Origin: Paludibacteraceae bacterium
GTDB lineage: Bacteria; Bacteroidota; Bacteroidia; Bacteroidales; Paludibacteraceae
NCBI GenBank assembly: GCA_045119955.1
Contig: JBGVEG010000162.1
Location: 17 to 64,016 of the forward strand
Length of the DNA: 64,000 nt
Reading direction: 5' to 3'
Part shown: one piece after another, positions 2,997 to 54,066 of the stretch
Layout of the letters: the number at the start of each line of letters is the position of its first letter
Position numbering within the stretch: position 1 is the first letter of the stretch
The notes under the pieces: generated by a model
Told to the model about the DNA's origin: nothing
The model's database searches: none
Seen by the model: only the letters and a program-made list of their open reading frames with translations
Program-made: the position numbers and the translations under genes

Positions 2997-4400
2997 CTAC
3001 AATATCTCTTCCCAGCCTTTTTTGATATTGCTGGCAATCTCTGCTTCGAAGATGTCGCGGACTTGTTGTTCGTCGGACGAATACGCCATATCGCGTTTGA
3101 TCATCTCTTTGCGGCTACTACTATAGTCGGTATGGTAGAAGATATAGGCAGGGAAACGTGGATTAGACTCTTTGTTAGTCTTCCAAAGCAAGAACTTATG
3201 AATCATCACTTTCTCGCCTGACACCTTCTTAAATACTCGGCGTGCCAATAGAGTACTTGGTTCCCCCTTTTGGTTGATGTTATCGTTTTCCTCGAACGGA
3301 CATATATCGCTGAGTTGGCTGACACGCACATCGGTAGGGTTGACAGATTTGTCGCTTCGTTCGCGGTCGATAGTCAATCCCAAAGCCGATACACCTGGTA
3401 CCATTCCCTGCATGAGCCATCCCTGCTCTGGATTGAATAACAAGATCGGATTGGTGCGGATCTTGTCGTCGTTGCCACGTGCTACGAGTTCCAATACCGA
3501 TAGCTCCATCACTATCTCTGGCTTCACCATCTGGTATGCCACTCCGCGTGAGTCAGACAACACATATTGCGACTCTACATGCAGGTTGCTCAAGCGCTGG
3601 GTGATAGCTTGGCGTTGTTCATCGTTGAGACCGTTGCTGCCAACGGCGAACATCTGCATGGTGCCATCAGGCAAGGCTACCGCAAACATCAAGTCGCGCA
3701 CCATGGTGATGGAAGTGGTATAGCCTATCACAGCGGCATCAATCGTATGGCGTGGTTTGATCTTCGCCACCATCAGATTGTCGGTATGCACAACTAATCC
3801 TTCTGCTCCCTGCTCTTCTACCCACTCTTGGTAGATCTGCTTTACCTCATCAATGCCCGCCACTTGGCGCATCTCCACAGGCATACAAAGGCGCGTGGTT
3901 TTATAGACAGTCTTGCCCTCTTTGTTCTGCGCTTTCAGGCGGAGAAGTTCCACCAGTTTGGTATGTACCTCACCGTAGTTTTGTGGACAAAAAGCCTCTC
4001 CATTGATGGAGATGATATCAAAGACTGCGAGCGACAGTTGGTCGCGCAATGTATCATCCGCCAATGCACGCGCTACATCGCCACATCGTGGACGCCCTTC
4101 TTCACGAGGCAGATAGAGCTCAGCAGCCATCACAGCGGTGCTGACACCTGCCTTGCCCATAAACCCTGCGAACATATCCATGCATTTGAGTTGATCGGCA
4201 CGCTGTTTACCATTGCTATTTAGCATAAAAACCTGCCCATCTTCATAGAAGAGGCATTGCATGTGTCCGTCAATTTTGCGTGTTACCCAAAACGATTCGC
4301 CTGCGAGGCGCGATTGGATCTTAGCCCCCTCCACAAGCATAAATTTGCTGGCTACATTCTTCTTGTAGTCAATAGCCATTTGTATGTATTGTTGGTTCAT
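2997..4400 (-). CDS. ATP-dependent DNA/RNA ligase-family nucleotidyltransferase with an OB domain and a WGR-like C-terminal extension (467 aa)
   Basis: Covalent nucleotidyltransferase motifs are present in canonical order and spacing: I K42-IDG, III AAELYL, IIIa LAVFDII, IV EGLVVH, V MVAKIKP. An OB-like segment follows (DAAVIGYT...FAVGSNGL). The last ~110 aa (KFLLWKT..AYIFYHTDY..SSDEQQVRDIFEAEIASNIKKGWEEI) resemble a WGR-domain pattern. The WGR call is tentative. Confidence 0.8.
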   Translation of the reverse strand: MNQQYIQMAIDYKKNVASKFMLVEGAKIQSRLAGESFWVTRKIDGHMQCLFYEDGQVFMLNSNGKQRADQLKCMDMFAGFMGKAGVSTAVMAAELYLPREEGRPRCGDVARALADDTLRDQLSLAVFDIISINGEAFCPQNYGEVHTKLVELLRLKAQNKEGKTVYKTTRLCMPVEMRQVAGIDEVKQIYQEWVEEQGAEGLVVHTDNLMVAKIKPRHTIDAAVIGYTTSITMVRDLMFAVALPDGTMQMFAVGSNGLNDEQRQAITQRLSNLHVESQYVLSDSRGVAYQMVKPEIVMELSVLELVARGNDDKIRTNPILLFNPEQGWLMQGMVPGVSALGLTIDRERSDKSVNPTDVRVSQLSDICPFEENDNINQKGEPSTLLARRVFKKVSGEKVMIHKFLLWKTNKESNPRFPAYIFYHTDYSSSRKEMIKRDMAYSSDEQQVRDIFEAEIASNIKKGWEEIL

Positions 4401-4504
4401 AATCTTTTCTTAGGTTAAAGGTTAAAGGTTAGAGGTTAAAGGCTGGTAATATGCGGCTATGCCGCCCTGCCTCTCGCCTTTCGCCTAATAGCCTTTTCGC
4501 CTAT

Positions 4505-5197
4505 TTAAACAGTTTTCAACTCCATATTAGTTAGTCGCAGTATGAGGGCGTAGCTGTCGCCTTGTACGCGGCCTTCCAAGAAAGCACGGTAGGGTGTACC
4601 GCCATTAGACATTACCACAGGTCCTACTCCTTTGTCACCACCGCCTAACAACATCATCGCATTGGCATCCGCCAATTTCTTAGCCATGTCGTATAGGAAG
4701 TCAAAGGTCAGACCATTGACATGCTGCACCTGATAACTCTTTTTGAATACGAACATACGCATAATACGGTCCTTAGGCATCAGTTTGCCTGTCCAGCGCA
4801 ATGGCACACCATCTAGTGCAATATTAGCAGGCAGGATGGTTTCTTGGCGCACCTCTTTCTCGCTGCCATCGGGCAAATAGACGTGCTCTTGGATCTTCAC
4901 ACCATAAGCCACCTTTTGGTTGGGTGAGAGATATACCTTTTTTAGCCCCTCTACTTTGAGTCCGAATTGCTCCATATCGATCTCAGGATCGGCAGCAATA
5001 AGTTGGTTTGCTAACTGGTCGGCATACTGCTCCAGCAGCACGGTATCAGTAGTGGAGGTGGTGAGTTTGAGTCGGCGTTCGCTGATACCGACGTGCCCCT
5101 CTGGTGTCTTATATACAGGGGTCAAGCGCTTTACTGCATTGCCAAATCCCACTTCGGCATCGCGCTTTACATCGTTGGATAGATTGATTTTTCGCAT
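4505..5197 (-). CDS. Hypothetical protein (230 aa), partner of the ligase
   Basis: Clean ORF, co-directional, 104 nt upstream of the ligase gene. I recognise no motifs in it. Confidence 0.6.
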   Translation of the reverse strand: MRKINLSNDVKRDAEVGFGNAVKRLTPVYKTPEGHVGISERRLKLTTSTTDTVLLEQYADQLANQLIAADPEIDMEQFGLKVEGLKKVYLSPNQKVAYGVKIQEHVYLPDGSEKEVRQETILPANIALDGVPLRWTGKLMPKDRIMRMFVFKKSYQVQHVNGLTFDFLYDMAKKLADANAMMLLGGGDKGVGPVVMSNGGTPYRAFLEGRVQGDSYALILRLTNMELKTV

Positions 5198-5317
5198 TGT
5201 GTTTCTTGTTGTGTATGGTGTAAAGTGTATGGTGTAAAGGCGATGATAATGCGGCTCTGCCGCTATCCACTGCCTTTAAACTTTAAACTCTGAACTTTAA
5301 ACTATGCGCCCCGCGCA

Positions 5318-5941
5318 TCAGAACATACTGAAATCTAATTCATCAATTTCTTCGATTACTTCTTCGTTTTCGTCAATAGTAGTCTGTTCAGCCAGCGATA
5401 CCAACTCAAAGGGTTGTGGATCGCCCGCAAAGAGGAATAGTCCGCTTGGTGTGTTGATAAGGTAACCATCGTTGTGATTGGTACTTTCGCGGTAGTTGAA
5501 ATCAAATTTGTAGATAGCTTCTCCCACCGCTGCTGCCAATTCGTCGTTCACGATTTGATACACAGCCTCCCAATCGTTGTCGAGAAACTGCTCTGTATTA
5601 ACCGTTTGCGTAAGAGGGATAGGCGCATCAAAGGATGAAGGATAGAGTATCAGTTCGTTTCCATCGTTGTCGTATGCCTTGAGGGCAGCCTTGTCCACCC
5701 AGCGGCCAGTGTCATCCACAGTGGCGTGTTTGAGTCCGCCGGATGGAATGATCAATGCATCGTCTGGCGATAGATATGCCGATGTGCATACTTCTCCATT
5801 TTTGTCGGTAGCCACCAATGCACTCCAACCGTATATTTTCTTGCGATCGAGTTTCACGGGTGCCGCAGCATAGTTTGTGCCAGATAGTGAAAAAATAAGT
5901 TCTTTTGCCATATTAAGAGTTGTTTTTATGTACGATTTCAA
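5318..5941 (-). CDS. Hypothetical protein (207 aa, or 197 aa from the ATG at 5911) with an SSB-like acidic C-terminal tip
   Basis: Clean ORF. The C-terminus EEVIEEIDELDFSMF is acidic and ends in a hydrophobic/aromatic residue, like the SSB partner-recruiting tail. The rest is unrecognised. Confidence 0.6.
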   Translation of the reverse strand: MKSYIKTTLNMAKELIFSLSGTNYAAAPVKLDRKKIYGWSALVATDKNGEVCTSAYLSPDDALIIPSGGLKHATVDDTGRWVDKAALKAYDNDGNELILYPSSFDAPIPLTQTVNTEQFLDNDWEAVYQIVNDELAAAVGEAIYKFDFNYRESTNHNDGYLINTPSGLFLFAGDPQPFELVSLAEQTTIDENEEVIEEIDELDFSMF

Positions 5942-5985: not shown

Positions 5986-7278
5986 TTATTGTAGTGATGG
6001 ATAGATTTGTTTGCCGTCTTTAAGTACAGTTACTTGTAAGCCGGGTAAGAGATTGTGCTTCTTCAAAGTCTCTAAAAATTTTTGAAAACTTTGAGTTGGT
6101 CTTTCGTCGGTGTACCAATCAGTTCGAACACGATATTCTGTATCAGCGATTTCAATCGTAGCATATACAGGAAAACTACCACTTGGAAGAGGTTCTGTAT
6201 TGGGTGCAAAGAGCGTATTATCGCCGTAAAAGTCTTTCTTATGAATATAGTTTTCAAAACGATCAATATCTTTCTGTGATTGTAGTTTGTCATATTGCTT
6301 TGCTAACTCTTCTATGATAGCATGTGCGGCTCTGCCTAACGAGGTATAGTCCTGTTTTATGTTTTCGGGGGCTATAATTTCTACTTTATGTGTACTGCTG
6401 ATATTTTTATATTTCTTCAGTACTGACGCTAATTCTTCATATATTTGCTTTTTTTCTAAATCATTATTTGCCACCGTAGCTGTTTCTATCGCAGTTGCAA
6501 ATAAATCAAAATTCTCATCAAGAAATTTCTTTAACTTTTCTTTTAATTCCTTTCCCATAGCCATAATGATTTTATCTGTTTGTTTTTCCACATTAACAGG
6601 TTTCTCCAATGTTAGAATATAATCCTTTAATATAAATTCTGTTCTTGGATTGAGATTAGGTAGTTGTAATAATGGTTCGATGATATTATCTACGATATCT
6701 TGGTAGGTAATACAAATAAATTCCTCACATTGTGGTAGTTGCGATTTATCACAACGATTGTAGATATATACATTTTCGAATCCATCTTTTTTTTGTGAGT
6801 ATTCCCGATGATATCTTTTTGTTTGTCCAATATCATTTTTATCTATTGTTTCGGGCGCATTCACTTTATTTTCGAAAATAACTCTAATATTCTTTGGCTC
6901 TGCTTCTATTTCTAAAATAATATCAACCCTATCACGATCTTTTCCTGCAACCTCTCTTTTTGCAGTACATTTAGTTATCTTGTCGGCAATGATTGGCAAA
7001 TGCTTGCCTAATTTCTTCTCATCATTATATATATTATTAATATTCTCCGTGACTTTTTTATTGATTAACTCAATCAAGTTCTCTGCAGGTGATACTAATT
7101 GGTGATCGGATGACGAATCAAACAACCATGCTAAAAAGTCGCTATGCTTGTTTTCGTCTCGATGAACGCCCACAATCTCCATCATGGATTTGGTTTGGTA
7201 GCGATTCTTCAGGAATTTAACACAACGTTGTTTGTTGAAGTTCTCCAACTTATTCTGTATTGTTTTATCCTTAGCCAT
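5986..7278 (-). CDS. PD-(D/E)XK nuclease-superfamily protein (430 aa)
   Basis: N-terminal H.DFLAWLFD motif, then a D...E.K core (RVDIILEIE...VIFENKVNA). The gene is clearly more AT-rich than its neighbours. Confidence 0.65.
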   Translation of the reverse strand: MAKDKTIQNKLENFNKQRCVKFLKNRYQTKSMMEIVGVHRDENKHSDFLAWLFDSSSDHQLVSPAENLIELINKKVTENINNIYNDEKKLGKHLPIIADKITKCTAKREVAGKDRDRVDIILEIEAEPKNIRVIFENKVNAPETIDKNDIGQTKRYHREYSQKKDGFENVYIYNRCDKSQLPQCEEFICITYQDIVDNIIEPLLQLPNLNPRTEFILKDYILTLEKPVNVEKQTDKIIMAMGKELKEKLKKFLDENFDLFATAIETATVANNDLEKKQIYEELASVLKKYKNISSTHKVEIIAPENIKQDYTSLGRAAHAIIEELAKQYDKLQSQKDIDRFENYIHKKDFYGDNTLFAPNTEPLPSGSFPVYATIEIADTEYRVRTDWYTDERPTQSFQKFLETLKKHNLLPGLQVTVLKDGKQIYPSLQ

Positions 7279-7297: not shown

Positions 7298-7789
7298 TTA
7301 GTCGTTTATGTTCATGTCCTCATATCCATCTTGCTTTGTTAGGATGGAATAATAGACTTTGAGTACATAGCATGGATCGTATTCACATTCAGGTACCAAT
7401 ATGAGGCAGCAATCCTCAGGGCGAGCAAAGACAGTGTCATCTGCGACACACAATTCCTCAATGTCCATCACTAGTGTTTGCCTTTCCTCATCGGCACGAA
7501 CCGTGACATAGAATTTCAATGCATCATTATCAATGAATATTCCATCTATCTGCAAACGCAAAAAGTCACCTGCTGTCTCATCAAAATAAATCATTGTAGT
7601 TTCGCTATGCAGGTCATAGTCGTTGAACATATCTATAGATATATCTGCAGCAGATACATACGGATTGGTGGTCGCATGACGCAGGATAAGATGTTCTCTG
7701 CCCTGTTTCAGCATTTCATCTTTGATTTGTTGGCACAGCTGTATAAACTCTAAGCGTTGTTCTGCTCTTCTTTCTTCGTATGTTTTCAT
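7298..7789 (-). CDS. Hypothetical small acidic protein (163 aa)
   Basis: ORF 19 nt upstream of the PD-(D/E)XK gene and 42 nt downstream of the channel-like gene. AT-rich. No recognisable motif. Confidence 0.5.
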   Translation of the reverse strand: MKTYEERRAEQRLEFIQLCQQIKDEMLKQGREHLILRHATTNPYVSAADISIDMFNDYDLHSETTMIYFDETAGDFLRLQIDGIFIDNDALKFYVTVRADEERQTLVMDIEELCVADDTVFARPEDCCLILVPECEYDPCYVLKVYYSILTKQDGYEDMNIND

Positions 7790-7831: not shown

Positions 7832-9178
7832 TTAGAATTCAATTTTTGTTGCATTTTTTTCAAAAATTTTATATCCACTCTTTTCACGGTCGCACAAATG
7901 TTGGTAATCAGTCTGCAACATTTCGCCTCCTAACACTTGATGAATACTCTCAGCCATGCGATAGGCGAACAACGAGCGAGAAGTATGTTTTGCCATCAAA
8001 TGGGCCCCGATGCGGATAGTAAACGAGTCGCATTCTGCACTGTCTTGACGCAAGCGATAAGCGATGTTGTTTTCAGAAAATGGGTATCGGTCGGAGTCTT
8101 CACTACTAAAATTGAAATCATAGTCAGCAAACATTGCCACTATACCCTCTTTAAGTGCTTGATACTTTTGGCTATCTACGATAGTGGGCTCTTTGCCATC
8201 GCGCATAGAAGAACTGAAGTGAATATGATTGCCGCCCTTATTGATATTCGTGACTTGGTGTAACAGGTATATATTCCAATGTCCTTCGCCTTGGCTCAGC
8301 AGCTTGAGATCGCGATAGAAATCTTGCTGTTGTTTATCATCGGTATTGTCCTTCATGTTGTAGTAGGAGGAGTTGTCTGTATCGCTTTCTATGCTTCGGC
8401 AAATGAAGTTGAATCCTCCAAACTGCGCGAGATAGTAGCCAAACCATTCGGTGGCTAATTCCACATGAGCAGAGGTCACAACAATGGTCACTTGACTTCC
8501 ACGATCTATGCAGCAACCATAGGAAGTATTGAGGCATCTATTCAGCACTACTAATCGGTCCACAGGATTTTCTGCTTCGGTTTGGATGGATGCCATATTG
8601 GCTAAGCAAAACTCAGGAAACATTTCGCACGCCTCCAATATATCTTTGGTATCCAAATGATACTTCACTTGCAATTCCGCAATAGGTTCGCATAGAGGTG
8701 CCATGTAGAAGTTGCCCTCTAATCCTTTCTCACGACGATAATCATTTACTCGGCGAGCCAAAGTAGGAGAGAACGATTTTTGCAAACGCGTGCGAAACTT
8801 ATGGAGTTCCTCTTGATGTTTGTCTTGCTCCATCGCTTCGCTAAAACCATTGGAGATTAAGCCCGTAGGAACAGCAAAGAGCGCAATCTTAAGCAAACAA
8901 AGTATCGCCCAAAGCACCTTACCAATGGCCGTAACTGGACTATGGACAATTACTGTTTCGGGCGGATTCTCCAAATATACCGTGAACGACCAAATAATAT
9001 TATCCCCCAAACTGGAATATACATCAGGCTGCGCAAGATGTTCTATCCAATAGAGAAGAGGCGAAATGATTAGGGTTAATGCGCAAATCACAATCATAGA
9101 AATAATTAGTTCGCGCTTGCAGAGATTGAGTCCTTTAAAGAAGAATCGAAATCCTTTGAGATAATTGTAATGTTTCAT
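7832..9178 (-). CDS. 2-TM potassium-channel-like (Ion_trans_2-like) membrane protein with a degenerate selectivity filter and a ~300-aa cytoplasmic domain (448 aa)
   Basis: TM1 is ELIISMIVICALTLIISPLLYWI. The pore-helix-like segment is DNIIWSFTVYL. ENPPETV sits where TVGYGD is expected. TM2 is TAIGKVLWAILCLLKIALFAVPTGLISNGF. A long soluble C-terminal region follows, with no motif I recognise. Confidence 0.55.
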   Translation of the reverse strand: MKHYNYLKGFRFFFKGLNLCKRELIISMIVICALTLIISPLLYWIEHLAQPDVYSSLGDNIIWSFTVYLENPPETVIVHSPVTAIGKVLWAILCLLKIALFAVPTGLISNGFSEAMEQDKHQEELHKFRTRLQKSFSPTLARRVNDYRREKGLEGNFYMAPLCEPIAELQVKYHLDTKDILEACEMFPEFCLANMASIQTEAENPVDRLVVLNRCLNTSYGCCIDRGSQVTIVVTSAHVELATEWFGYYLAQFGGFNFICRSIESDTDNSSYYNMKDNTDDKQQQDFYRDLKLLSQGEGHWNIYLLHQVTNINKGGNHIHFSSSMRDGKEPTIVDSQKYQALKEGIVAMFADYDFNFSSEDSDRYPFSENNIAYRLRQDSAECDSFTIRIGAHLMAKHTSRSLFAYRMAESIHQVLGGEMLQTDYQHLCDREKSGYKIFEKNATKIEF

Positions 9179-9610: not shown

Positions 9611-10804
9611 TTAACGATGGCGCTGGAGCAGCAGATCCAATGCCTCTTGTGCGGCGGTGTCGGCTGGAGAAAAAAAGATAGAAGGATATTCAGGATGTAT
9701 ATGAGAGAGTTGATAGGCGAGATGGGGATAATAAGATAGATAATCCTCTTCTATCAATTGTCGATTTTCGGTATAGTGAAGCAAGTATTGGCGAAATAAA
9801 GTATTAATATCATTGGCAAATGCTCCCAAATAAGTAGTTGTAAATTCTTGATAGTGATATGGAATATTCATAAGGCTATCGCGATACGCACAGAATACAC
9901 TATCATAACTCTCATGAATAGGCGCAAGAATCGCTTCCTCATACGCCTGCTGTTGTGCCTGAGTAGCCATGTCCAATCGTTGCTGCACAGTAGGTACACA
10001 AAGCAACGAAATTGCCATTAGCAAAGTACAGATAATCAAAACGATAGGATATGATTTTGCACGGTGAATGGCACGGCGAAGTTGCAAGATATTTGCGTAG
10101 CGATGTGCTGCGTTCGCCTGGGTACATCGGCGCACTACGCAGCGGAAACGATGTGGAAAAAGCAACTGTATAATCTTGCCCAAAGCATAGATGTCCGTTC
10201 TGCAATCACTCTGCCCATTTTCAGTGAGCTGTTCGGGTGCAGCAAAAGTAGGCGTACAACCGATATTCCTTGCCAGATAAGCATCATTGTCCGACAGACC
10301 AAAATCAATCAGTTTGACATGGTTGCCATTGCGCGTGATCAATATATTATCAGGCTTGAGATCGCCATGCGTAATCTGTTTGGCGTGGATATAGTCTAAC
10401 GCCTCAATCAGTTCTAAAAGTACCCGTTGGCGTTCTGCGGATGAAGGACGTGTTTTTAACCATTCGGTGAGAGTCACTGCGTCCACATACTCCATAATGA
10501 TGGATAATCCAAACGGATCCACTTCGGTCAACCACCATAGGCGAACAATGAAAGGAGAATCCAATTGTTGCAACAATTCATATTCTCGTTGCAACAGAGC
10601 CTGATAACGTGATTTCTCGCCTATGGCAGGATGGATTGTTTTTAGTACAAACCATCTACCATCTTGCTGAAAACGAAAGACTTGGCTGTGGTGTGACTCG
10701 GACAATAATTCGTAATGTTCTGGCGAGTTGGGCACGGCTGAAGTCCATGAAGGATTGGCTATTAATTCGGAAGAAATCATCGTTTTTTGGGTTTGAGTTT
10801 GCAA
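9611..10804 (-). CDS. Hanks-type Ser/Thr protein kinase with a TM anchor and an extracytoplasmic tail (397 aa)
   Basis: VLK lysine, HGDLKPDNILI catalytic loop, DFGLS, FAAPE, and TM segment IVLIICTLLMAISLLCV. The true start may be Met9 (10780), because a TACTTTTG box lies at 10802-10809. Confidence 0.85.
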   Translation of the reverse strand: MQTQTQKTMISSELIANPSWTSAVPNSPEHYELLSESHHSQVFRFQQDGRWFVLKTIHPAIGEKSRYQALLQREYELLQQLDSPFIVRLWWLTEVDPFGLSIIMEYVDAVTLTEWLKTRPSSAERQRVLLELIEALDYIHAKQITHGDLKPDNILITRNGNHVKLIDFGLSDNDAYLARNIGCTPTFAAPEQLTENGQSDCRTDIYALGKIIQLLFPHRFRCVVRRCTQANAAHRYANILQLRRAIHRAKSYPIVLIICTLLMAISLLCVPTVQQRLDMATQAQQQAYEEAILAPIHESYDSVFCAYRDSLMNIPYHYQEFTTTYLGAFANDINTLFRQYLLHYTENRQLIEEDYLSYYPHLAYQLSHIHPEYPSIFFSPADTAAQEALDLLLQRHR

Positions 10805-11700: not shown

Positions 11701-12891
11701 TTACTCAAGGACCTTGAGGGCTTTGCCGACTTTAATGAAGGCCTCTATGCCGCGATCCAATTGTTCCGTCGTATGAGCCGCAGAGAGTTGCACGCGGATA
11801 CGCGCTTGACCTTGTGGCACTACTGGATAGTAGAAACCCGTCACATAAATACCCTCCTCTTGCAATGCCGCAGCGAACTCTTGGCTGAGTCGTGCATCGT
11901 ACAACATCACCGCGCAGATAGCTGACTCGGTTGGCTTAATATCAAAGCCCGCCGCTTTCATCTTGGTAATGAAGTACTCGGTATTGGCGTGCAAACGGTC
12001 TTGCAACTCGTTGCTACGGGTCAAAATTTCAAAGGTCTTCAATCCCGCCGCAGCAATCAGCGGAGGAATAGAGTTAGAGAATAAATATGGACGGCTGCGT
12101 TGGCGAAGCAAGTCAATGATTTCCTTCTTACCTGTGGTAAAGCCACCTACTGAACCACCGAAGGCCTTACCCAATGTACCCGTAATAATCTCAATCTTAC
12201 CGCGGAGGTCGTAGCGTTCGGTCACACCGTGACCCGTCTTACCTACTACACCCGCAGAGTGGCTCTCGTCCACCATCACGAGGGCATCGTATTTCTGTGC
12301 CAGTTCGTAGATCTTATCGAGTGGGCAGACATTGCCGTCCATGGAGAACACACCATCGGTAGCAATAATGCGGAAGCGTTGCGCTTGTGCTTTCTTGAGT
12401 TGCTCCTCGAGGTCCGCCATGTCGCCGTTGGCGTAGCGGTAACGCACTGCCTTACAGAGGCGCACGCCATCAATGATAGAGGCATGGTTCAGTGCATCCG
12501 AAATAATCGCATCTTGGTCGGTCAGGAGGGGCTCAAACAAACCACCGTTGGCATCAAAACAAGCCGCATAGAGGATAGTGTCCTCGGTGCCGAAGAAGTT
12601 GGAAATGGCTTGCTCGAGTTGCTTGTGGGTGTCCTGCGTACCACAAATGAAACGCACGGATGCCATACCATAGCCACGAGCGTCCATGCGGTCTTTGGCT
12701 GCCTGGATGAGTTCTTGGTTGTCAGCCAAACCCAAGTAGTTATTCGCGCAGAAGTTGATGACATCTTTTCCGCCTTCTACTTGGATGGCAGAAGATTGAG
12801 GCGTGATGATTACTCGTTCGTTTTTATACAATCCTGCCTCTTTGATATCAGACAGAATTGTTTGTAAATGTTTCTGAAATTCTCCGTACAT
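11701..12891 (-). CDS. kbl: 2-amino-3-ketobutyrate CoA ligase (glycine C-acetyltransferase)
   Basis: 396 aa, class-II aminotransferase fold, with typical Kbl sequence throughout (NFCANNYLGL, DESHS.G, GTLGKA). Confidence 0.9.
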   Translation of the reverse strand: MYGEFQKHLQTILSDIKEAGLYKNERVIITPQSSAIQVEGGKDVINFCANNYLGLADNQELIQAAKDRMDARGYGMASVRFICGTQDTHKQLEQAISNFFGTEDTILYAACFDANGGLFEPLLTDQDAIISDALNHASIIDGVRLCKAVRYRYANGDMADLEEQLKKAQAQRFRIIATDGVFSMDGNVCPLDKIYELAQKYDALVMVDESHSAGVVGKTGHGVTERYDLRGKIEIITGTLGKAFGGSVGGFTTGKKEIIDLLRQRSRPYLFSNSIPPLIAAAGLKTFEILTRSNELQDRLHANTEYFITKMKAAGFDIKPTESAICAVMLYDARLSQEFAAALQEEGIYVTGFYYPVVPQGQARIRVQLSAAHTTEQLDRGIEAFIKVGKALKVLE

Positions 12892-12911
12892 AAAAAACTT
12901 TGTTTTTGACT

Positions 12912-13038
12912 GCTTCGCGGTTAGAAGTGAGATCGCTTCGCTGTTAGAAGTTAGACCCTGGGAAGTCTATCAGCGCGGAGCGCGGTCTATCAGTATAACG
13001 GTCTAACAATGAAATGATCTAATAGCGTAGCGGTCTTA
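12912..13038. repeat. Low-complexity word repeats (GCTTCGC / GGTTAGA / CGGTCTAAC family)
   Basis: gcttcgcggttagaagtgagatcgcttcgctgttagaagttagacc ... ggtctatcag..gcggtctatcag..cggtctaac..gcgtagcggtctta. Related words occur at 21935-21960 and 44019-44075. Confidence 0.7.
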
Positions 13039-13045
13039 ATTTACA

Positions 13046-14389
13046 TTATACAATACCTTGCTCGAGCATGGCTTGAGCCACCTTCATGAAGCCAGCGATA
13101 TTAGCTCCCTTCACGTAGTCAATAGTGCCATCGGCTAGGCGACCGAACTTCACACATTGCTCGTGAATGGATTGCATAATATGGTGCAAACGTGCATCTA
13201 CCTCTTGTGCGGTCCAAGAGAGGTGCTCGCAGTTTTGTGTCATCTCGAGACCAGATGTCGCCACGCCACCTGCGTTCACCGCCTTACCAGGAGCGAAGAG
13301 TACGCCGTTGTGTTGGAAGTAGTGGATAGCGCCAGGTTGGCAACCCATGTTACTTACCTCGCAGCAGCACCAGCAGCCGTTAGCCTTCAATTCCTTAGCA
13401 TCATCCTCGCTGAGCTCATTTTGGAACGCACATGGGAGAGCAATATCGCAAGGTACAGACCATGCTTTCTTGCCAGCAGTGAAGTGTGCTTGTGCTGGGA
13501 ACTTATCTGCCATATCTTGCACCTTATTGCGGTTGCTTGAGCGCATAACGAGCATATAATCAATCATCTCAGCGGTGATACCCTCTGGGATAGCGCATAC
13601 GCCGTCAGGACCAGAGATAGCCACCACCTTAGCACCAAGTTCAGTAGCTTTTTGCGCAGCGCCCCAAGCTACGTTACCGAAGCCAGAGATAGCTACTGTC
13701 TTGCCCTTGATAGACTTGCCTGCCTCGTGCAGCAGGTGCTCGGTGAAATAAAGTGCACCATAGCCCGTTGCCTCTGGACGGAGGATAGAGCCGCCCCATG
13801 TCATGCCCTTACCAGTGAGCACGCCAGTGTGGTATTGACGAGCCAATTTCTGGTACATACCATTGAGGAAACCAATCTCGCGACCGCCTACGCCTACGTC
13901 ACCAGCAGGAACATCGGTATCCACACCTATGTTGTGCCAAAGCTCAAGCATGAAGGCTTGGCAGAAACGCATGATCTCCGCATCAGACTTACCTACTGGA
14001 TCGAAGTCAGAGCCACCCTTTGCGCCACCCATTGGGAGGGTTGTGAGGGCGTTCTTGAAGGTTTGCTCAAAGCCCAAGAACTTGAGCATACTGGGGTTAA
14101 CTGCTTTATGGAAACGCAATCCGCCTTTGTAAGGGCCGATAGCAGAGTTGAATTGCACACGATAACCGAGGTTGGTCTGTACCTGACCTTGGTCGTCCAC
14201 CCATGTCACACGGAAAGTGAAGATACGATCTGGCTCTACCATACGCTCCACGATCTTGGCTTTCTCAAACTCAGGATGTTGGTTGTACACTTCCTCGATA
14301 GACACAAGGACTTCTTCTACGGCTTGCAAATACTCTGCCTCGCCTGGGTGCTTCGCAGCAAGGTGCTGCATAATGTCGGTTACTTTCAT
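13046..14389 (-). CDS. gdhA: NADP-specific glutamate dehydrogenase
   Basis: 447 aa with the GGAKGGSDFDP active-site region and a GFGNVAWGAA dinucleotide fold. Confidence 0.95.
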   Translation of the reverse strand: MKVTDIMQHLAAKHPGEAEYLQAVEEVLVSIEEVYNQHPEFEKAKIVERMVEPDRIFTFRVTWVDDQGQVQTNLGYRVQFNSAIGPYKGGLRFHKAVNPSMLKFLGFEQTFKNALTTLPMGGAKGGSDFDPVGKSDAEIMRFCQAFMLELWHNIGVDTDVPAGDVGVGGREIGFLNGMYQKLARQYHTGVLTGKGMTWGGSILRPEATGYGALYFTEHLLHEAGKSIKGKTVAISGFGNVAWGAAQKATELGAKVVAISGPDGVCAIPEGITAEMIDYMLVMRSSNRNKVQDMADKFPAQAHFTAGKKAWSVPCDIALPCAFQNELSEDDAKELKANGCWCCCEVSNMGCQPGAIHYFQHNGVLFAPGKAVNAGGVATSGLEMTQNCEHLSWTAQEVDARLHHIMQSIHEQCVKFGRLADGTIDYVKGANIAGFMKVAQAMLEQGIV

Positions 14390-14417
14390 TGTAGTAATAT
14401 TTTTAAGGGTTGTTTTG

Positions 14418-14452
14418 TTATTGGCAATTGGTTATTGGCAATTGGATATTGA
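14418..14452. repeat. Heptanucleotide array (CNATTGG = CCAATNG family)
   Basis: ttattgg caattgg ttattgg caattgg atattga, lying between the gdhA start and its promoter box. Confidence 0.8.
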
Positions 14453-14462
14453 ATATCGGGTG

Positions 14463-14470
14463 CAAAGGTA
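14463..14470 (-). promoter_or_regulatory. -7 box TACCTTTG for gdhA
   Basis: CAAAGGTA on the plus strand, ~75 nt upstream of the gdhA ATG. Confidence 0.6.
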
Positions 14471-16708
14471 CTACTTTTTTCTCAAATACACAAAAAATGT
14501 GGTACCTTTTTCAGATGTTTGGAAACATATTTTTCCACCACTTCCTTCTACGATATTCTTCGAGATCGGCATACCAAGTCCCGCGCCCGTGTTCTTGGTG
14601 GTGAAGTTAGGCACAAACACCTTCTCCTGCATCTCCTCCGGAATACCTGGTCCGTTGTCGGATATGGAAATCTTGACCCAGTCCTTATTAGGATTGAGTT
14701 GTTCGTCCTCAATGGTCTGTTCGTTAGCAGGCTTGAGAATAACAATAATATCACTATCAGGTCGTCCCTCCATGGCTTGCAAAGCATTACGAAGGATATT
14801 GCTAAACACCTGCGTAATCTGATCTGCATCCGCCATAGCCATAACACCACTTTCGGGTCCTACATATCGGATAGGTACTTGGTCGGGGTTATTGCGCATG
14901 AGCGTAATGACCTTGAAGAGTTTGTTCGCCACATCTACCTTCGTCGGATTGACCTCGGGCATCTTAGCAAAAGAGGAGAAAGACTTGGCTATATGGCTAA
15001 GGTTGTCAATTTGGTCTATAAGCAACTGCGTAGAACGATTGAAGTACTCATTAAAACGCTCTGTGCCCTGGGTTCGTTGGAGTTGTTGCAGGGTGAGTTT
15101 CATAGGTGTGAGCGGATTGTTGATCTCATGCGCCACCTGTCGAGCCATGGTGCGCCATGCCATCTCACGCTCCGTGCGCGCCAGCCGCTCAGAGGACTCT
15201 TCAAGTGCATCAACCATCAGGTTGTACTGCGTGATAATCTCGCCGACCTCATCGGAGAAGACATACTCTATATGCTTGGCATCCGCACCTTGTTGGTGCT
15301 GCTTGAGCTGATCACTCACCACGCTTAGGGACGAAGTGATAGCATAGGATATACCCCAGACTATTAGGATAGAGATAAGCAACAGAATGATATACAAAGG
15401 CAGAAGTTTGACCATGAAGTTCTCCACGTGCATATTCATCTCTGTCTGCGAAATGAAACTGGGCAAAGCAATGTACCCTATCTTAGCATAGTTACCATTA
15501 ATAAACTCGGTGTAAGCGGAGAGATAGCGCACATTACCGATCTGCTCATATTGTACGAGCGAGTGTTCATCCGTAAAGAATGGTTCTGGTGCCAAGTGGC
15601 TAGGCAGCAAGCCCAAGTCAAACAACTGCGGCGTGGACGTACCAATAAGGCGACCATTGAGGTCATAGACGTGTATATCGGTCTCAAAAACGAAACTCAT
15701 GTCGCGCAAGTCCACATTGAGCGCAAGCGTATTGGAAGGCGATATAGACATATCCCAGAAATACATATTCTGGAGTGCCATCTGGACATATTTGGCTTTC
15801 TTGGAAAGGCGCAACTGCTGCGTCTCAATGAACAGTCGGCCGATATGCTCAATAGAAACCATGAAAATAGAGAGCAAGATCACCAACACCAATGGCGTCA
15901 AGACCAACTGGAACTTACCACTCAAACGCATACGGCGGAAACCACGATATTTCACCAGAGTAAAAATCGCGATAAAGAGCAAAATACCAATCATCGTTCC
16001 CGTAATGATATAGTACATGCGCAGTTTGGCTTTGGCGGAAGCACCGCCTTGTTGATCCGTATTCAGAATAGCTTGATAGGAGAAGTTATCAATATTCTCT
16101 GCTGTTTGTACGGAGCGTTTTTCTCCTATTTGGTTAGTAATCGAGAATAGATATAATCCGTCGGTGGAGTAGATTGGGTAGCTGTCCTCCTGCGCCTGCA
16201 ATGAGGTCAGTGTACAATATTCATCACCTCGAAACGGAGGTATAAAACGATTGTGCAAGAGAGGAGAGGTCACCGAGTAGTTATACTTAATGGGTATAGC
16301 TACAAGCACCTTATAGTCGCCTATCTGCTTGCGACAGCAGACACCCTGCGCATTGTCCCATTGCACAAAGTGCCACTGGTCATGGAGTTCCCATCTCGCT
16401 CGTTTGGAAGCGCTGAGCCAAGCATTGGACCAATAGACCAACTGGGAGTCCTTATATATATAAAATAGGATAGTCTTGTCGGCTTGGGTATAGTACCAAA
16501 TAGAATCGAAATTGTTCGTCTCAATGGCAGCCGAGACATGTGCCAACAACTCATTGGCACGGTGCTGCTGGTGGTGCAAAGTACGCTGCAAGCGCTTACC
16601 TCTCCATGTGGAAGATTGGCATGAACAAATGCCCAGCAACAAACCAAACAGGATAAATAATATACCTATTTTTCGTTTCACGCTGCAAAAATAATACTTT
16701 TTTTGCAT
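14471..16708 (-). CDS. Membrane sensor histidine kinase (745 aa), no adjacent response regulator
   Basis: N-terminal signal/TM segment, further TM segments, H-box HEINNPLTPM, N-box and G-boxes (DNGPGIP, GAGLGM). Confidence 0.85.
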   Translation of the reverse strand: MQKKYYFCSVKRKIGILFILFGLLLGICSCQSSTWRGKRLQRTLHHQQHRANELLAHVSAAIETNNFDSIWYYTQADKTILFYIYKDSQLVYWSNAWLSASKRARWELHDQWHFVQWDNAQGVCCRKQIGDYKVLVAIPIKYNYSVTSPLLHNRFIPPFRGDEYCTLTSLQAQEDSYPIYSTDGLYLFSITNQIGEKRSVQTAENIDNFSYQAILNTDQQGGASAKAKLRMYYIITGTMIGILLFIAIFTLVKYRGFRRMRLSGKFQLVLTPLVLVILLSIFMVSIEHIGRLFIETQQLRLSKKAKYVQMALQNMYFWDMSISPSNTLALNVDLRDMSFVFETDIHVYDLNGRLIGTSTPQLFDLGLLPSHLAPEPFFTDEHSLVQYEQIGNVRYLSAYTEFINGNYAKIGYIALPSFISQTEMNMHVENFMVKLLPLYIILLLISILIVWGISYAITSSLSVVSDQLKQHQQGADAKHIEYVFSDEVGEIITQYNLMVDALEESSERLARTEREMAWRTMARQVAHEINNPLTPMKLTLQQLQRTQGTERFNEYFNRSTQLLIDQIDNLSHIAKSFSSFAKMPEVNPTKVDVANKLFKVITLMRNNPDQVPIRYVGPESGVMAMADADQITQVFSNILRNALQAMEGRPDSDIIVILKPANEQTIEDEQLNPNKDWVKISISDNGPGIPEEMQEKVFVPNFTTKNTGAGLGMPISKNIVEGSGGKICFQTSEKGTTFFVYLRKK

Positions 16709-16725
16709 ATTTGCAAATTTTTTAG

Positions 16726-16733
16726 TACTTTTG
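16726..16733 (+). promoter_or_regulatory. -7 box TACTTTTG for 16784-17515
   Basis: TAnnTTTG match ~50 nt upstream of the ATG. Confidence 0.45.
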
Positions 16734-16783
16734 CGCTCGATTTTAGGTTATCATTGATAGATTAAAGGTAAAAGACAAAGATT

Positions 16784-17515
16784 ATGGTACATATTTTCAC
16801 TTCGTTGCTCTTGGGATTCTTAATGATACTTGATCCCTGCACCCTCTTCACGAGTATTGCAGCCATCGGCTATATAGATAAGGAAATCAACAACCGCCGC
16901 AAGGTGCTAATGAACGGACTCATGTTCGTGTTGGGCAAATTAGCCACATACACGCTACTGGCTATCCCCTTTATCATGGGTGCCCAAACTGATGGCATCA
17001 AGCATTTTCTCCATCATTGGGGCGAACCTCTGCTGGCAGCATTTATGATTATTTGCGGTGTACTACTACTCTTCACCGGCAGACACCATCATGAGCATGA
17101 CCACGGCATGAGCAAATGGCTAAAAAACACGGATAGTCAGAGTAGTGGTTTTTGGTCATTCATGTTAGGTATATTCTTTGCTATTGCTTTTTGCCCACAC
17201 CGTTTGGTGTATTTCTTCACCATGATTGACATAGCCATCACCCTACCCTTCTCATGGAACTGGGTGCTGCCTATTATTTTCAGTTTGGGTACAGGATTAC
17301 CAATTATGATTATAGCATGGCTCATCTCATATAGTGCGGTATCCATCAACACCTTAACTGGCAAGTTGCATGTTGTAGAGAAATGGGTACGTTATATCTC
17401 AGCAGCGTTATTCATCGGTTTTGGTATTTATCTGTGTGCGCACATCTTCGCACATGGACATAGTCACGAATGTGGCCATAACCGCGGGCATGCGCATTGC
17501 GAAATGGTAGATTAA
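16784..17515 (+). CDS. DsbD/CcdA-superfamily-like polytopic membrane protein with a His-rich loop and tail (possible metal-cation transporter)
   Basis: Six or so hydrophobic segments, DPC in TM1, the loop HHHEHDHG, and the C-terminal tail HGHSHECGHNRGHAHCE. Confidence 0.5.
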   Translation: MVHIFTSLLLGFLMILDPCTLFTSIAAIGYIDKEINNRRKVLMNGLMFVLGKLATYTLLAIPFIMGAQTDGIKHFLHHWGEPLLAAFMIICGVLLLFTGRHHHEHDHGMSKWLKNTDSQSSGFWSFMLGIFFAIAFCPHRLVYFFTMIDIAITLPFSWNWVLPIIFSLGTGLPIMIIAWLISYSAVSINTLTGKLHVVEKWVRYISAALFIGFGIYLCAHIFAHGHSHECGHNRGHAHCEMVD

Positions 17516-17518
17516 GAC

Positions 17519-18349
17519 ATGGGCTCTCCGAACTTCCGTTTCAAACAGTTCACTGTATGGCACGACCGTTGTGCTATGAAGGTCGGCACAGATGGTGTGC
17601 TATTAGGCGCGTGGTGCCCATTACCAATCGCCAATAACCCATCGCCAATAACCAATAACCAATCGCCTATAGCCAATCCCCCCTGCAGGGTCTTAGACAT
17701 TGGCACGGGCAGCGGGCTCATCGCCCTCATGCTGGCACAACGCCTCTCCTCCCAATCGCCAATAGCCAATAACCAATCGCCTATAGCCAATAGCCAATCG
17801 CCAATAGCCAATAGCCCATCACCAATAGCCCATATTGATGCCATTGATATAGACGCAAATGCCGTGGCACAAGCACAGGGCAACTTTGCCCTCTCACCTT
17901 GGGAAAATATGCTACACGCACACCACTCCACCCTACAAGATTGGCAAGCCGGAGGATACGACCTAATAGTGAGCAATCCGCCCTACTTTCAAGCCAGTCT
18001 CAAGAACCCCAACCAGCAACGTGCTACCGCTCGCCACACGGACAGTTTGAGCTATGAGGAGTTAATAGCACACGCAGCACGGCTGCTGAAAGACAGCGGT
18101 GTATTGGCACTCATACTGCCCATTGAAGCTGAGAGCGAGATACGGACATTAGCAGAACACAATCAGCTCTACCCTACCCATATCACCCATATCCATTCCA
18201 AGCCCAATAAACCTGCTAAACGGCTATTAATCGCGTTGAGCAAACAAGAACAAAGCGAGGAGCCACTCATCCGAACCTTCTACATAGAATCGGAAAGCGC
18301 TCCCCGCAGCCCAGAATATCAGGACTTAACCTGCGACTTCTACTTGTAA
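17519..18349 (+). CDS. trmN6: tRNA (adenine-N6)-methyltransferase, YfiC/TrmN6 type, carrying two in-frame heptamer-repeat insertions
   Basis: FKQF.V.HDRCAMKVGTDGVLLGAW, SAM motif LDIGTGSGLIALMLAQR, and catalytic NPPYF. The order matches the E. coli YfiC sequence as I recall it. Confidence 0.8.
   Translation: MGSPNFRFKQFTVWHDRCAMKVGTDGVLLGAWCPLPIANNPSPITNNQSPIANPPCRVLDIGTGSGLIALMLAQRLSSQSPIANNQSPIANSQSPIANSPSPIAHIDAIDIDANAVAQAQGNFALSPWENMLHAHHSTLQDWQAGGYDLIVSNPPYFQASLKNPNQQRATARHTDSLSYEELIAHAARLLKDSGVLALILPIEAESEIRTLAEHNQLYPTHITHIHSKPNKPAKRLLIALSKQEQSEEPLIRTFYIESESAPRSPEYQDLTCDFYL
17624..17679 (+). repeat. CCAATNG heptamer array inside trmN6 (insertion 1)
   Basis: ccaatcg ccaataa cccatcg ccaataa ccaataa ccaatcg cctatag ccaatcc. 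Encodes PIANNPSPITNNQSPIANP. Confidence 0.85.
17752..17835 (+). repeat. CCAATNG heptamer array inside trmN6 (insertion 2, 12 units = 84 nt)
   Basis: ccaatcg ccaatag ccaataa ccaatcg cctatag ccaatag ccaatcg ccaatag ccaatag cccatca ccaatag cccatat. Encodes QSPIANNQSPIANSQSPIANSPSPIAH, a 7-aa period. Confidence 0.9.
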
Positions 18350-19750
18350 CTAATCACGGCGAATGACACTGCCACCCACGGCTATGTTCTGCCGTATCAG
18401 TGGTGCACCCTTATAGGTAATCTTGCTGGCGCCCGCCGCCTGTGCCCACAGTTCGCGAACGACATTCACCTCCGCTTTGCTCGCACCTGCGCAGTTGATA
18501 TGCAAGGTCTGTGCCACGAGATCCTCTGCATCCAATTCGCCGGCACCCGCAATGGTGACACGCACCTCGTCTGCTGTTCCCGAGAGTTCTAACTGGCTCG
18601 CGCCCTTAGCATCTATCATCAGCGTTTGCACATGCAAATGCAATTCCGCTTGGGCTGCGCCGTTAAGGTCAAGTGCAAGCGAAGGTTGAGTCAGTATTTG
18701 TCCGTCCAGCATCTCAATCTTGCTGGCACCGTAAACAGTGATCTTGCGTAAGTCAGGCGAAGCAATCGCAAAATCCAGCATCACTTCATCCAGCGGCATT
18801 TGCGTGGTAACATCAATATAGAGTACGCTATCACGCACCTCAGCCAGCCAGTTATCCTCGCCCGTCACGAGAGAGTGCAACATATTGGTAGTCAACGTGG
18901 TTGAAGGTACTGCTGCTTGGCTCAAATGCAACTGAGCCGCTCCGCGGAGTTCCACACTATGATAGGCATCCAACTGCAAGGCCGAAGTCGCAACACCTGC
19001 ATCGTCCACATCAAAATCATCCATAGTCATTGCACTGAGAATCTGAGGCGCATGCTCGTAAGCGTGATAGAAACGCACCAACGAAGCGCTCCAAAAGATT
19101 ACCGACGCCACCCAAAAGAGTATCGTAATCCACCAGAAACGTGCTTTAGGGCCACGACGGGTACGCATGAATGTGACAATCGTATGCACAATCATGACGA
19201 TCGGTAATACCACAATCAGCAGTAGCGCAATCAACAGGAATAGGATAATGATACCATTGCCCTCCATCAAGACATCTGCCAAAGCAGAGACAAAAGGCAT
19301 TGTTGTCCCCATCGTGGTACCTGCGATCGTCACACCAAAGAAGGTAAACACCAAGGCACACAATACAATCAATCCAAACACAATCACTGGCAATGCTAAA
19401 ATAGCAAGTACCACATTCAGCGCAATACTGAACATACGTCTGCAACCATCGTTGTGCGAATGATCCACCCTGACCTTGGGACGGCTATTAGGTCCGAACT
19501 CCTTGGGTTCACCTATCTGTGCCTTCACCGACTGCACCATCTGCATACTAACCACTTGCACATTCTTGGCAAAGAGGGCCTTCTGAAACAGTTCTGCTAT
19601 GCGTGCTTCGAGGTCTGCCATCACTTCTTGGCGGTCCTGCTGTGGCAAGCGTTGCTCAATATCCGACAGGTAGTCGTGCAGACACTTATATGCATCATAA
19701 TCAATGTGATAAACTAAACCATTGAGGTTTATAGTACGAGTTTCGTTCAT
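18350..19750 (-). CDS. PadR-associated membrane protein with a C-terminal DUF2807/GIN-like beta-helix repeat domain (466 aa)
   Basis: N-terminal INLNGLVYHIDYDAY module, four TM segments, then repeated GA[AS][QK].E.. strands (GAAQLHLS, GASKIEM, GAAQAELHL, GASQLELSG, GAGELDA, GASKAEV, GASKITYKG). Confidence 0.55.
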   Translation of the reverse strand: MNETRTINLNGLVYHIDYDAYKCLHDYLSDIEQRLPQQDRQEVMADLEARIAELFQKALFAKNVQVVSMQMVQSVKAQIGEPKEFGPNSRPKVRVDHSHNDGCRRMFSIALNVVLAILALPVIVFGLIVLCALVFTFFGVTIAGTTMGTTMPFVSALADVLMEGNGIIILFLLIALLLIVVLPIVMIVHTIVTFMRTRRGPKARFWWITILFWVASVIFWSASLVRFYHAYEHAPQILSAMTMDDFDVDDAGVATSALQLDAYHSVELRGAAQLHLSQAAVPSTTLTTNMLHSLVTGEDNWLAEVRDSVLYIDVTTQMPLDEVMLDFAIASPDLRKITVYGASKIEMLDGQILTQPSLALDLNGAAQAELHLHVQTLMIDAKGASQLELSGTADEVRVTIAGAGELDAEDLVAQTLHINCAGASKAEVNVVRELWAQAAGASKITYKGAPLIRQNIAVGGSVIRRD

Positions 19751-19753
19751 AAT

Positions 19754-20074: not shown

Positions 20075-20080
20075 AGAGAG

Positions 20081-20278: not shown

Positions 20279-20309
20279 TGTCTTATCTATTTTAAGTTAA
20301 TTAGTTTGC

Positions 20310-54003: not shown

Positions 54004-54066
54004 CGTTTCTTTACTATTGTTTCAATATTTCAAAGGTCACTTGCGCGGCGAAGCCGCTGTTTTTTA

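Follow-up and report, generated by a model that had tools for sequence, protein, structure and literature searches.

What task is served by an ATP-dependent DNA ligase that is encoded side by side with two proteins of no recognisable family? This question is raised by a locus of a Paludibacteraceae bacterium (contig JBGVEG010000162.1), located in a stretch of 64,000 nucleotides (nt) that was analysed as a whole, is termed the window in the following and provides all coordinates given here. On its minus strand, between 2997 and 5941, three co-directional open reading frames (ORFs) are found at 5941..5318 (gene A), 5197..4505 (gene B) and 4400..2997 (the ligase gene), as described in an earlier note that had been made from the DNA letters. 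The answer favoured here, held with moderate confidence and leaning in part on predicted structures, is that the trio represents a compact, self-contained cassette for the end joining of double-strand breaks, of a previously unrecognised type, which combines a Ku-like heterodimer with a dedicated ligase.

The first step concerns the question of whether the three genes belong together at all. A one-genome-per-species scan with an alignment of B yielded at least 584 relatives, and the best 80 of these were combined with eight metagenomic loci for comparison (n=88). In these loci, hidden Markov models of the three families detected the ligase in 76, directly downstream and across phyla, A in 82 and B, by construction, in all 88. 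The order A-B-ligase is maintained in most loci, with median gaps of 14.5 nt between A and B and of 17 nt between B and the ligase. Most of the absences fall at contig ends: among the six loci without A, four have less than 510 nt upstream of B; several of the ligase-less loci end within 1.7 kb of B, and in L041 and L064 the ligase is degraded. Altogether, the loci span at least 10 phyla: Bacteroidales loci (Paludibacteraceae, Prevotella, Bacteroidaceae, Muribaculaceae, Alistipes, Tidjanibacter) show 45-81% identity, most of them above 60%, while 42-56% identity is found in Lentisphaerae, Myxococcota, Desulfobacterota, Bacillota/Clostridia, Caldilinea (Chloroflexi), Actinomycetes, Verrucomicrobia, Marinimicrobia, Saprospiraceae and others. 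The three genes thus form a real module, A-B being its tightest pair, as would be expected of a heterodimer; co-conservation across genomes, on which the module proposed in the earlier note had hung, was found.

A conserved fourth gene was considered and rejected, as all-against-all clustering of the ORFs from the 88 loci showed only A, B and the ligase to be general, with LRR_5 proteins, DUF2779 proteins, a 395-amino-acid (aa) protein and a 448-aa protein occurring in 10-21 loci each. Likewise, 129 neighbours of 26 diverse loci share no common family, the commonest Pfam families being met three times each. Because its neighbours are unrelated from locus to locus, the trio appears to be self-sufficient. 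None of A, B and the ligase matches any model of PADLOC-DB v2, and, as had been supposed from the letters, the libraries searched contain no named system of defence or repair into which the trio fits.

The second step concerns the ligase. The window protein carries K42-I-D-G, AELY (E94), FDI, EGLVV (E200, G201) and KIKP (K213, K215), and throughout 41 diverse homologues from many phyla the residues K42, G45, E94, E200, G201, K213, K215, R348, D350 and K351 are invariant, with F127 of FDI (motif IIIa) nearly so (at least 90%). The canonical series of motifs listed by the earlier note is therewith present in full and conserved, and all hallmarks of the ATP-dependent DNA ligase superfamily (motifs I, III, IIIa, IV and V, the OB domain and motif VI) are found in the window ligase. 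Pfam assigns DNA_ligase_A_M (PF01068; 4.6e-7, above the cut-off) and DNA_ligase_A_C (PF04679; 8e-4) to it, and these domains occur in 39 and 41 of the 41 homologues, respectively. The closest NCBIfam model is NHEJ_ligase_lig (TIGR02779; 1.9e-16), a ligase domain of non-homologous end joining (NHEJ), which supports the proposed role of the adjoining A and B from their context, although its 60.2 bits stay far below the cut-off of 227.75; the window ligase likewise remains below LigD-type cut-offs, reaching 47.7 versus 373.2 with the DNA ligase D model. When the ligase family profile was compared with the sequences of the PDB, archaeal and Lig1-type ligases were matched at 4e-24, human LIG1 at ~1e-18 to 2e-19, most entries being aligned through motif VI, and LIG4 at 1e-12, followed by LigD-LIG of Mycobacterium tuberculosis (Mtb) at 5.7e-9 and, weakly, by LigC at 4e-8. 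The 41 homologues (~450-510 aa) comprise nucleotidyltransferase and OB domains, besides weak overlapping matches within the nucleotidyltransferase superfamily, and contain no primase-polymerase (POL) or phosphoesterase (PE) domain; nor do POL/PE families figure among the 25 most frequent Pfam families of the 129 neighbours. Judged by its sequence, the protein is a complete DNA ligase of a subfamily of its own that is devoid of the DNA-binding domain of Lig1 and of the POL/PE modules of LigD. The picture of an accessory ATP-dependent ligase with two partners that sequence libraries do not recognise was borne out.

It is at this point that an RNA substrate has to be weighed, according to which the ligase would be an RNA-repair enzyme and the trio would mend broken RNA, e.g., tRNA or rRNA cut by ribotoxins. 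Weak secondary Pfam matches to RNA_ligase and PNKP_ligase in 15 and 10 of the 41 homologues, respectively, are in line with this idea, as is the resemblance by pattern of the C-terminal tail to WGR, a domain for which RNA binding is reported elsewhere (PMC7470946). Nevertheless, the explanation is very unlikely, given that the OB domain present in every homologue is that of DNA ligases and motif VI is invariant, that the best solved relatives (4e-24 to 1e-12) are all DNA ligases, and that the predicted folds of the two partners are those of a binder of double-stranded DNA ends.

The third step concerns the identity of these partners. The ORF of gene A comprises 207 aa and opens at a TTG at 5941; since its homologues all begin at MAKEL, corresponding to an ATG at 5911, the true product is probably a protein of 197 aa. 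Neither A nor B has a match in Pfam, NCBIfam, PADLOC or PHROGs, and no recurrent family emerged from 41 A-family and 67 B-family diverse members scanned at E<=10. The two partner ORFs are indeed as unrecognisable as they had been said to be, and the profile libraries matched them to no known housekeeping or prophage structural family. Public records that name A and B list them as hypothetical proteins. Because 1553 homologues of B and 588 of A were retrieved at E<=1e-3 from a set of 5.8 billion proteins, the genes are, by the measure of their conservation, real and under selection; in a representative library, the B family forms 486 clusters at 50% identity. A profile of the B family returned noise only from the sequences of the PDB.

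The fold of both proteins was predicted with AlphaFold2 (AF2), and comparison of the models with the PDB by Foldseek pointed to a single family. For the A model, the top 50 matches are all Ku, led by Mtb Ku (9i91_A; E 6.3e-4, prob 1.0; query TM-score, TMq, 0.42 over 197 columns), with 9vnq, 8v53 and Ku80 chains next. For the B model, the top 50 matches are again all Ku, beginning with a Ku homodimer (8v53_A; E 1.2e-3, prob 1.0), after which 9i91, Ku80 chains of many Ku70/80 entries and Bacillus subtilis Ku (9vnq) follow. In the viral library BFVD, the A model has exactly two significant matches, a Caudovirales 'Ku-homolog' and the Ku of Mycobacterium phage Dylan, and the third-ranked match falls to E 0.095 and prob 0.21. 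Moreover, the order of strands and helices predicted for A and B agrees with Ku. An artefact of folding is unlikely because two unrelated sequences converge on the same unusual fold, because the match is specific in two libraries, and because a Ku fold works together with the neighbouring ligase, which the predictor had not seen. On the strength of these models, it is likely that A and B are Ku-fold proteins that have diverged beyond the reach of sequence methods, albeit they should not be filed in the Ku family as currently defined. The 'Ku-independent' end joining considered in the earlier note does not hold if, as predicted, both partners adopt the Ku fold.

Several observations weigh against an end-joining cassette built on Ku-like subunits. 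The AF2 inputs were shallow alignments of close relatives that are ~70% identical or more. The mean predicted local distance difference test score (pLDDT) amounts to 60.5 for A, with confident regions at residues 1-20 and 90-165 only, and to 54.5 for B, and in either case these means were reached by one of five models only; the TM values with respect to Ku are modest, with ~0.29 for B and the above-mentioned 0.42 for A. The Ku models of Pfam (PF02735) and NCBIfam miss A, B and 108 diverse members (41 of A, 67 of B) at E<=10. Ku profiles were assembled from Mtb and B. subtilis Ku (PDB), phage Ku and 80 diverse metagenomic Ku sequences, and hhalign comparison of A and B with profiles of 10 and 89 sequences remained non-significant (P 0.14-0.49), with P 0.25 and 0.37 for A and B with the 89-sequence profile. 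Similarity between A and B is likewise undetectable by hhalign. At the level of loci, A and B occur without a ligase within at least 3 kb in L001-4, L025, L063, L075 and L083, and in L071, a Gracilibacteraceae metagenome-assembled genome (8702-13397), B and the ligase are found without A, with pheA (chorismate mutase/prephenate dehydratase) on one side and a gene for methionine gamma-lyase on the other, a state that may represent either a variant with a homodimer or decay of the cassette.

The low scores of the models are not evenly distributed over the two proteins. The low-pLDDT stretches at residues 22-86 of A and 69-133 of B fall where Ku has its dimer-dependent bridge arms, and prediction of a monomer would be expected to handle a Ku-like bridge badly. 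As to the profiles, Mtb and B. subtilis Ku as queries recovered nothing but near-identical mycobacterial proteins and hence little profile diversity, and further viral scans for Ku sequences gained one new sequence. The alignments with the 10-sequence Ku profile, non-significant as they are, run colinear with Ku and bring conserved segments of A and B opposite hallmark segments of Ku: in A, 'PVKL' is placed with Ku 'PVKV', 'PIPLTQTV..EAVYQI' with 'IEVLEFV..RSYFLEP' and 'IYKFDFNYR' with 'AIVHFTLRN', and in B 'FVFKKSYQVQH...FDFLYDMAKKLA' with 'MFDRSYFLEPD...SYVLLAKTLA'.

Should the match to Ku be an artefact of poor models, A and B might instead be novel single-stranded-DNA-binding, annealing or scaffold proteins, with A acting in the manner of a single-stranded-DNA-binding protein (SSB) and taking part, together with the ligase, in recombination or in the repair of nicks or gaps. 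The low pLDDT of both models and the missing sequence-profile similarity to Ku would be compatible with this explanation, and in plan the acidic tail of A with its hydrophobic tip resembles the C-terminal tip of SSB. Yet A has no SSB family match, and its fold search gave Ku and no OB-fold proteins. Rad52, RecT and ERF, i.e., families of single-strand annealing proteins (SSAPs), are absent from the top fold matches of A and B, and neither these nor other SSB or SSAP families were matched in Pfam, NCBIfam or PHROGs. Considering furthermore that two unrelated sequences gave Ku exclusively, in two libraries, and that this match agrees with a ligase context unknown to the structure predictor, the explanation appears improbable.

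The fourth step concerns the interplay of the three proteins in the favoured end-joining cassette. A and B, as very divergent Ku-fold proteins, would assemble as a heterodimer into a ring that slides over DNA ends, like the bacterial Ku homodimer and eukaryotic Ku70/80, and the strict adjacency of their genes lends indirect support to such a dimeric ring. The ligase, with its Lig1/LigB-like core of nucleotidyltransferase and OB domains, would seal the ends, and recruitment of a partner would fall to the tail of A, which is flexible and acidic and bears an invariant hydrophobic tip (LDFSMF/M). In close Bacteroidales relatives the tip EEIDELDFSMF is nearly invariant, and distant homologues of A across phyla keep an acidic tail and end in LDF[SGD]M[MF]; the acidic tip pointed out previously is thereby present and conserved. 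The likeliest partner of this tip would be the ligase itself, by way of the C-terminal domain that is peculiar to its family and in which every invariant residue is basic, and contact between the tip and the ligase tail would be the most economical arrangement. As no polymerase or nuclease module is present, mainly clean or compatible ends, or nicks, would be rejoined. Formation of the heterodimer, binding of ends, contact between tail and ligase and the role in vivo are what we infer from these data.

The C-terminal extension of the ligase is real and conserved, as claimed at the outset: it covers ~residues 355-467, is kept in every full-length homologue (tail matches E 1e-16 to 1e-72) and has a conserved part of ~90 aa after motif VI. 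An alignment of 40 tails reveals the invariant basic residues R387, K392, K402, K410, R430 and K460, and the tails end in KKGW. The likening of this extension to a WGR domain found no support at the level of sequence. The Pfam WGR model (PF05406) matches none of 41 ligase tails at E<=1, the position of the W-G-R motif reads T-D-[YF]-S-S, and a profile of the tail retrieved no PARP from the PDB sequences at E<=10 but noise only; what stands is a colinear, non-significant hhalign alignment with the WGR domain of PARP1 (P 0.63), in which FPAYIFY..HTDYSS is placed with NRYWIFRSWGRVG and IKKGW with TGNAW. On this basis, the tail is left as WGR-like by pattern only. Ligase-WGR fusions have been described in delta-proteobacteria and Planctomycetes, with an OB_2-type domain (Williamson & Leiros 2020, PMC7470946).

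Extensions of another kind were noticed at the ends of single family members. The ligase of L061 (3633-5165) ends in a lysine-rich tail (KKKAKKK...), and the B-family representatives P0285 and P0251 bear C-terminal additions, of which one is a lysine-rich HC2 tail and another a SAM domain. HC2 (PF07382), found at the lysine-rich end of one B-family member, is also present on some mycobacterial Ku proteins. By analogy, the added tails of B and the lysine-rich tail of the L061 ligase look like DNA-binding extensions as they occur on canonical Ku.

The fifth step is the comparison with known systems, among which bacterial NHEJ, comprising a Ku homodimer (PF02735) and LigD, is functionally the nearest. 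In both cases, Ku-fold protein(s), predicted as such in the cassette, are paired in an operon with an ATP-dependent ligase, and the sporadic distribution of the cassette, shaped by horizontal transfer, is similar to that of canonical NHEJ (PMC7719229). Moreover, the flexible tail of A could recruit the ligase in the way described for the C-terminus of Ku (PMC4889933, PMC9638933). In contrast to bacterial NHEJ, the cassette has two distinct subunits that are invisible to Ku sequence models, and its ligase differs from LigD by the lack of POL/PE, by a core that is nearer to archaeal and Lig1-type enzymes than to LigD-LIG and by a C-terminal domain of its own. In addition, the tail of A is acidic, whereas the extended C-terminus of canonical Ku is lysine-rich.

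A second parallel is provided by eukaryotic Ku70/Ku80 and DNA ligase IV, which share with the predicted cassette the combination of a two-subunit end binder of Ku fold and a dedicated ligase. In Ku80, an acidic C-terminal stretch is followed by a hydrophobic tip (...EEGGDVDDLLDMI), by which DNA-PKcs is recruited, and the tail of A (...EEIDELDFSMF) is built on the same plan. A and B differ from Ku70/80 in that they lack vWA and SAP domains, are not accompanied by XRCC4 or XLF and show no detectable sequence similarity to it. The duplication giving rise to Ku70/80 has been placed in early eukaryotes (PMC11936186), and therefore any two-subunit arrangement of the cassette would be an independent event.

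Stand-alone LigC and the NT-OB_2-WGR ligases are similar to the cassette ligase inasmuch as they are accessory ATP-dependent ligases of nucleotidyltransferase and OB domains with an appended domain. However, the OB domain of the cassette ligase is of the PF04679 type and its tail lacks a Pfam WGR match, which sets it apart from the NT-OB_2-WGR ligases, and its match to LigC in the PDB is weak. With phage Ku and Mu Gam, finally, the cassette has in common the notion of an end-binding module that is small and mobile, the A model matching phage Ku by fold, but it differs from them by its own ligase, its two subunits and its absence from the phage collections searched.

Surveys with Ku and LigD sequence models find NHEJ sporadically in bacteria (PMC7719229), and bacterial Ku is described as a homodimer, the heterodimer being regarded as a eukaryotic innovation (PMC11936186, PMC12784961); a Ku-like pair with a ligase in Bacteroidales was not found described in literature searches. 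Against this background, a wider reading can be put forward tentatively, in which a second bacterial Ku lineage, invisible to sequence models, consists of an obligate A/B ring with a Lig1-like ligase recruited via an acidic tip and is a mobile three-gene system carried by no fewer than 584 species-level genomes that represent at least 10 phyla. Such a lineage might, with the same reserve, be seen as a prokaryotic parallel, possibly even a relative, of the Ku70/80 heterodimer arrangement. If true, the NHEJ capacity of bacteria has been systematically under-counted, and an extra end-joining route would exist in many gut and rumen anaerobes, including Bacteroidales in which Ku models would find nothing. 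Estimates of which bacteria are able to survive double-strand breaks without a template would have to be revised, which bears on CRISPR-based killing or editing of Bacteroidales, on phage therapy and on the mutagenic capture of foreign DNA. Furthermore, the trio would serve biotechnology as a very small end-joining kit made up of three proteins, and it would provide a new point of comparison for the evolution of Ku heterodimers and of tail-mediated partner recruitment. With A, B and the ligase tail, three uncharacterised domains that are absent from current libraries are defined.

The sixth step concerns the genomic setting and, with it, the possibility of a role in conflicts. A tblastn search with B gave no match in 72,556 plasmids and 50,697 phage genomes and none in IMG/VR, so that an origin from phages or plasmids was rejected. 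Nor is there support for the phage-type recombination cassette of annealing protein, SSB-like protein and ligase that the earlier note had entertained, for which the fold searches did not provide any OB-fold SSB, Rad52, RecT or ERF match either. The cassette is chromosomal, patchy across phyla and situated in variable regions, and therefore appears to spread horizontally. Its flanks vary by locus, with housekeeping genes in some (L071) and variable-region genes in many, and scattered defence genes occur near the trio, i.e., ZacABC, a type IIG restriction-modification system, mad2/mad8, MzaA and HEC-05.

This setting invites the view that the Ku-like or Gam-like end-capping pair and the ligase shield and reseal chromosomal or incoming DNA after cleavage by restriction enzymes, CRISPR, nucleases of phages or interbacterial DNase toxins, an explanation near to the anti-phage or anti-nuclease system of the earlier note that we consider unlikely. 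The trio would then be a damage-tolerance or counter-defence module of genomic islands, which seems doubtful to the same degree. The patchy cross-phylum spread and the defence genes in the variable regions speak in favour of it, as do the position of the window trio next to a PADLOC candidate (PDC-S26) and the recurrent conflict-type neighbours in Bacteroidales, comprising a Sno-like helicase-kinase-VWA-PP2C-AAA set and an AAA_5+DUF2201 pair. On the other hand, no defence partner recurs among the neighbours of diverse loci, the trio was not found in the phage, plasmid and IMG/VR collections, the flanks are plain housekeeping genes at some loci such as L071, and PADLOC matches neither A nor B nor the ligase.

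The features of the locus are compiled below, including the two spacers that separate the genes in the window.

Features of the three-gene locus (coordinates on the window; residue numbers refer to the respective protein)
Feature	Position	Strand	Basis or remark
Gene A, predicted Ku-fold subunit 1	5318..5911	-	MAKEL start; AF2 and Foldseek
Disordered acidic C-terminal tail of A, ~residues 166-197	5321..5416	-	pLDDT <50 over residues 166-197; conserved tip
A-B spacer, imperfect long hairpin with GCGGCAGAGCCGC core and heptad arms	5198..5317	-	Lineage-specific insertion
Gene B, 230 aa, predicted Ku-fold subunit 2, most conserved of the trio	4505..5197	-	
B-ligase spacer, second hairpin on the same plan with GCGGCATAGCCGC core and AGGCGAAA / CCTTTAA arms	4401..4504	-	
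ATP-dependent DNA ligase, 467 aa: nucleotidyltransferase, OB and C-terminal extension	2997..4400	-	PF01068, PF04679
Ligase nucleotidyltransferase domain, residues 27-207, motifs I (K42), III, IIIa, IV	3780..4322	-	
Ligase motif V (K213, K215), just past the nucleotidyltransferase domain	~3756-3764	-	
Ligase OB domain, residues ~234-351, motif VI (R348-x-D350-K351) at its end	3348..3701	-	
Conserved C-terminal domain of the ligase, ~residues 375-467, ends ...IKKGWEEIL	3000..3278	-	

The earlier note had drawn attention to the spacers as two elements built on one plan, and the plan itself is confirmed. Both carry a GCGGC-N3-GCCGC hairpin, of which four copies are present in the window versus 0.03 expected, both are flanked by heptad arms and both fold into a long imperfect hairpin (z -3.6 and -2.5); in addition, the right arm of the B-ligase spacer and the left arm of the A-B spacer show 79% complementarity, the two bracketing gene B. 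A part in the module did not follow, as the spacers are lineage-specific insertions: they are common only to the two closest relatives, L009 and L010, with varying numbers of the repeat unit. Two candidate roles were tried and rejected, namely that of working parts of the module, since only these two relatives share the hairpins and the genes abut in most loci, and that of intrinsic terminators, since a terminator scan was no richer than shuffled sequences and placed none in the spacers. The hairpin elements possibly act as RNA structures between cistrons or constitute a small mobile repeat. Further copies of GCGGC-N3-GCCGC lie at 53821-53833 and 54045-54130, one of them with similar heptad arms, and arrays of 7-8-nt units (AGGCGAAA / CCTTTAA / GTTTAAA / CTTTACA) flank the core at three of four sites. 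An Rfam scan of L005, L001 and L066 detected no known RNA upstream of A, the single match (L066) being an unrelated small RNA ~5 kb downstream of the ligase.

Upstream of the trio, a 430-aa PD-(D/E)XK gene (5986-7278) matches PDDEXK_4 (1.1e-11) and the PADLOC candidate PDC-S26 (E 3e-21). A homologue is found near the trio in only one other of the 88 loci, L073, which makes this nuclease gene a neighbour rather than the partner that one reading in the earlier note had made of it. Together with a 163-aa orphan (7298-7789) it occupies a stretch of 35% guanine-plus-cytosine (GC) content versus ~46% around it, and this stretch appears to have been inserted separately, between the trio and the gene of a 448-aa protein (7832-9178). 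The latter protein has a hydrophobic N-terminal region by eye and matches phrog_7872 (5e-9, residues 19-130) but has no Pfam match; its gene recurs at a distance of a few kb from the trio in 10 Bacteroidales loci, immediately follows that of the ligase in L032 and L036, and could be a lineage-specific accessory gene. Farther upstream follows a protein-kinase-like gene (9611-10804) with homologues near the trio in three other loci (L066 at 15942-17009, L021 and L029).

On the other side, the trio lies near one end of the 64-kb contig, where two BspA-type LRR_5 genes (725-2260 and 2340-2918) follow the ligase, their repeats giving rise to long spurious antisense ORFs. An LRR_5 gene is also found between B and the ligase in several loci (among L001-L004, L012, L017 and L042), which suggests repeated insertion of such genes into the cassette.

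In 8-10 loci, a set made up of a Sno-like helicase (AAA_34 + Helicase_C_4), Pkinase, VWA, PP2C and AAA genes comes next after the ligase (e.g., L049 at 12103-20487) and is possibly a conflict or signalling system sharing islands with the trio. The pair of AAA_5 (MoxR-like) and DUF2201 (VWA-like/metallopeptidase) occurs near the trio in L005 (17046-19519) and L025 (1586-4242), AAA_5 being the top family, with three matches, among neighbours from diverse phyla; DUF2779 and DUF1281_C proteins are further recurrent neighbours in Bacteroidales. Elsewhere in the window, an ORF of 2749 aa is present at 44072-52321, in a stretch of ~38-41% GC.

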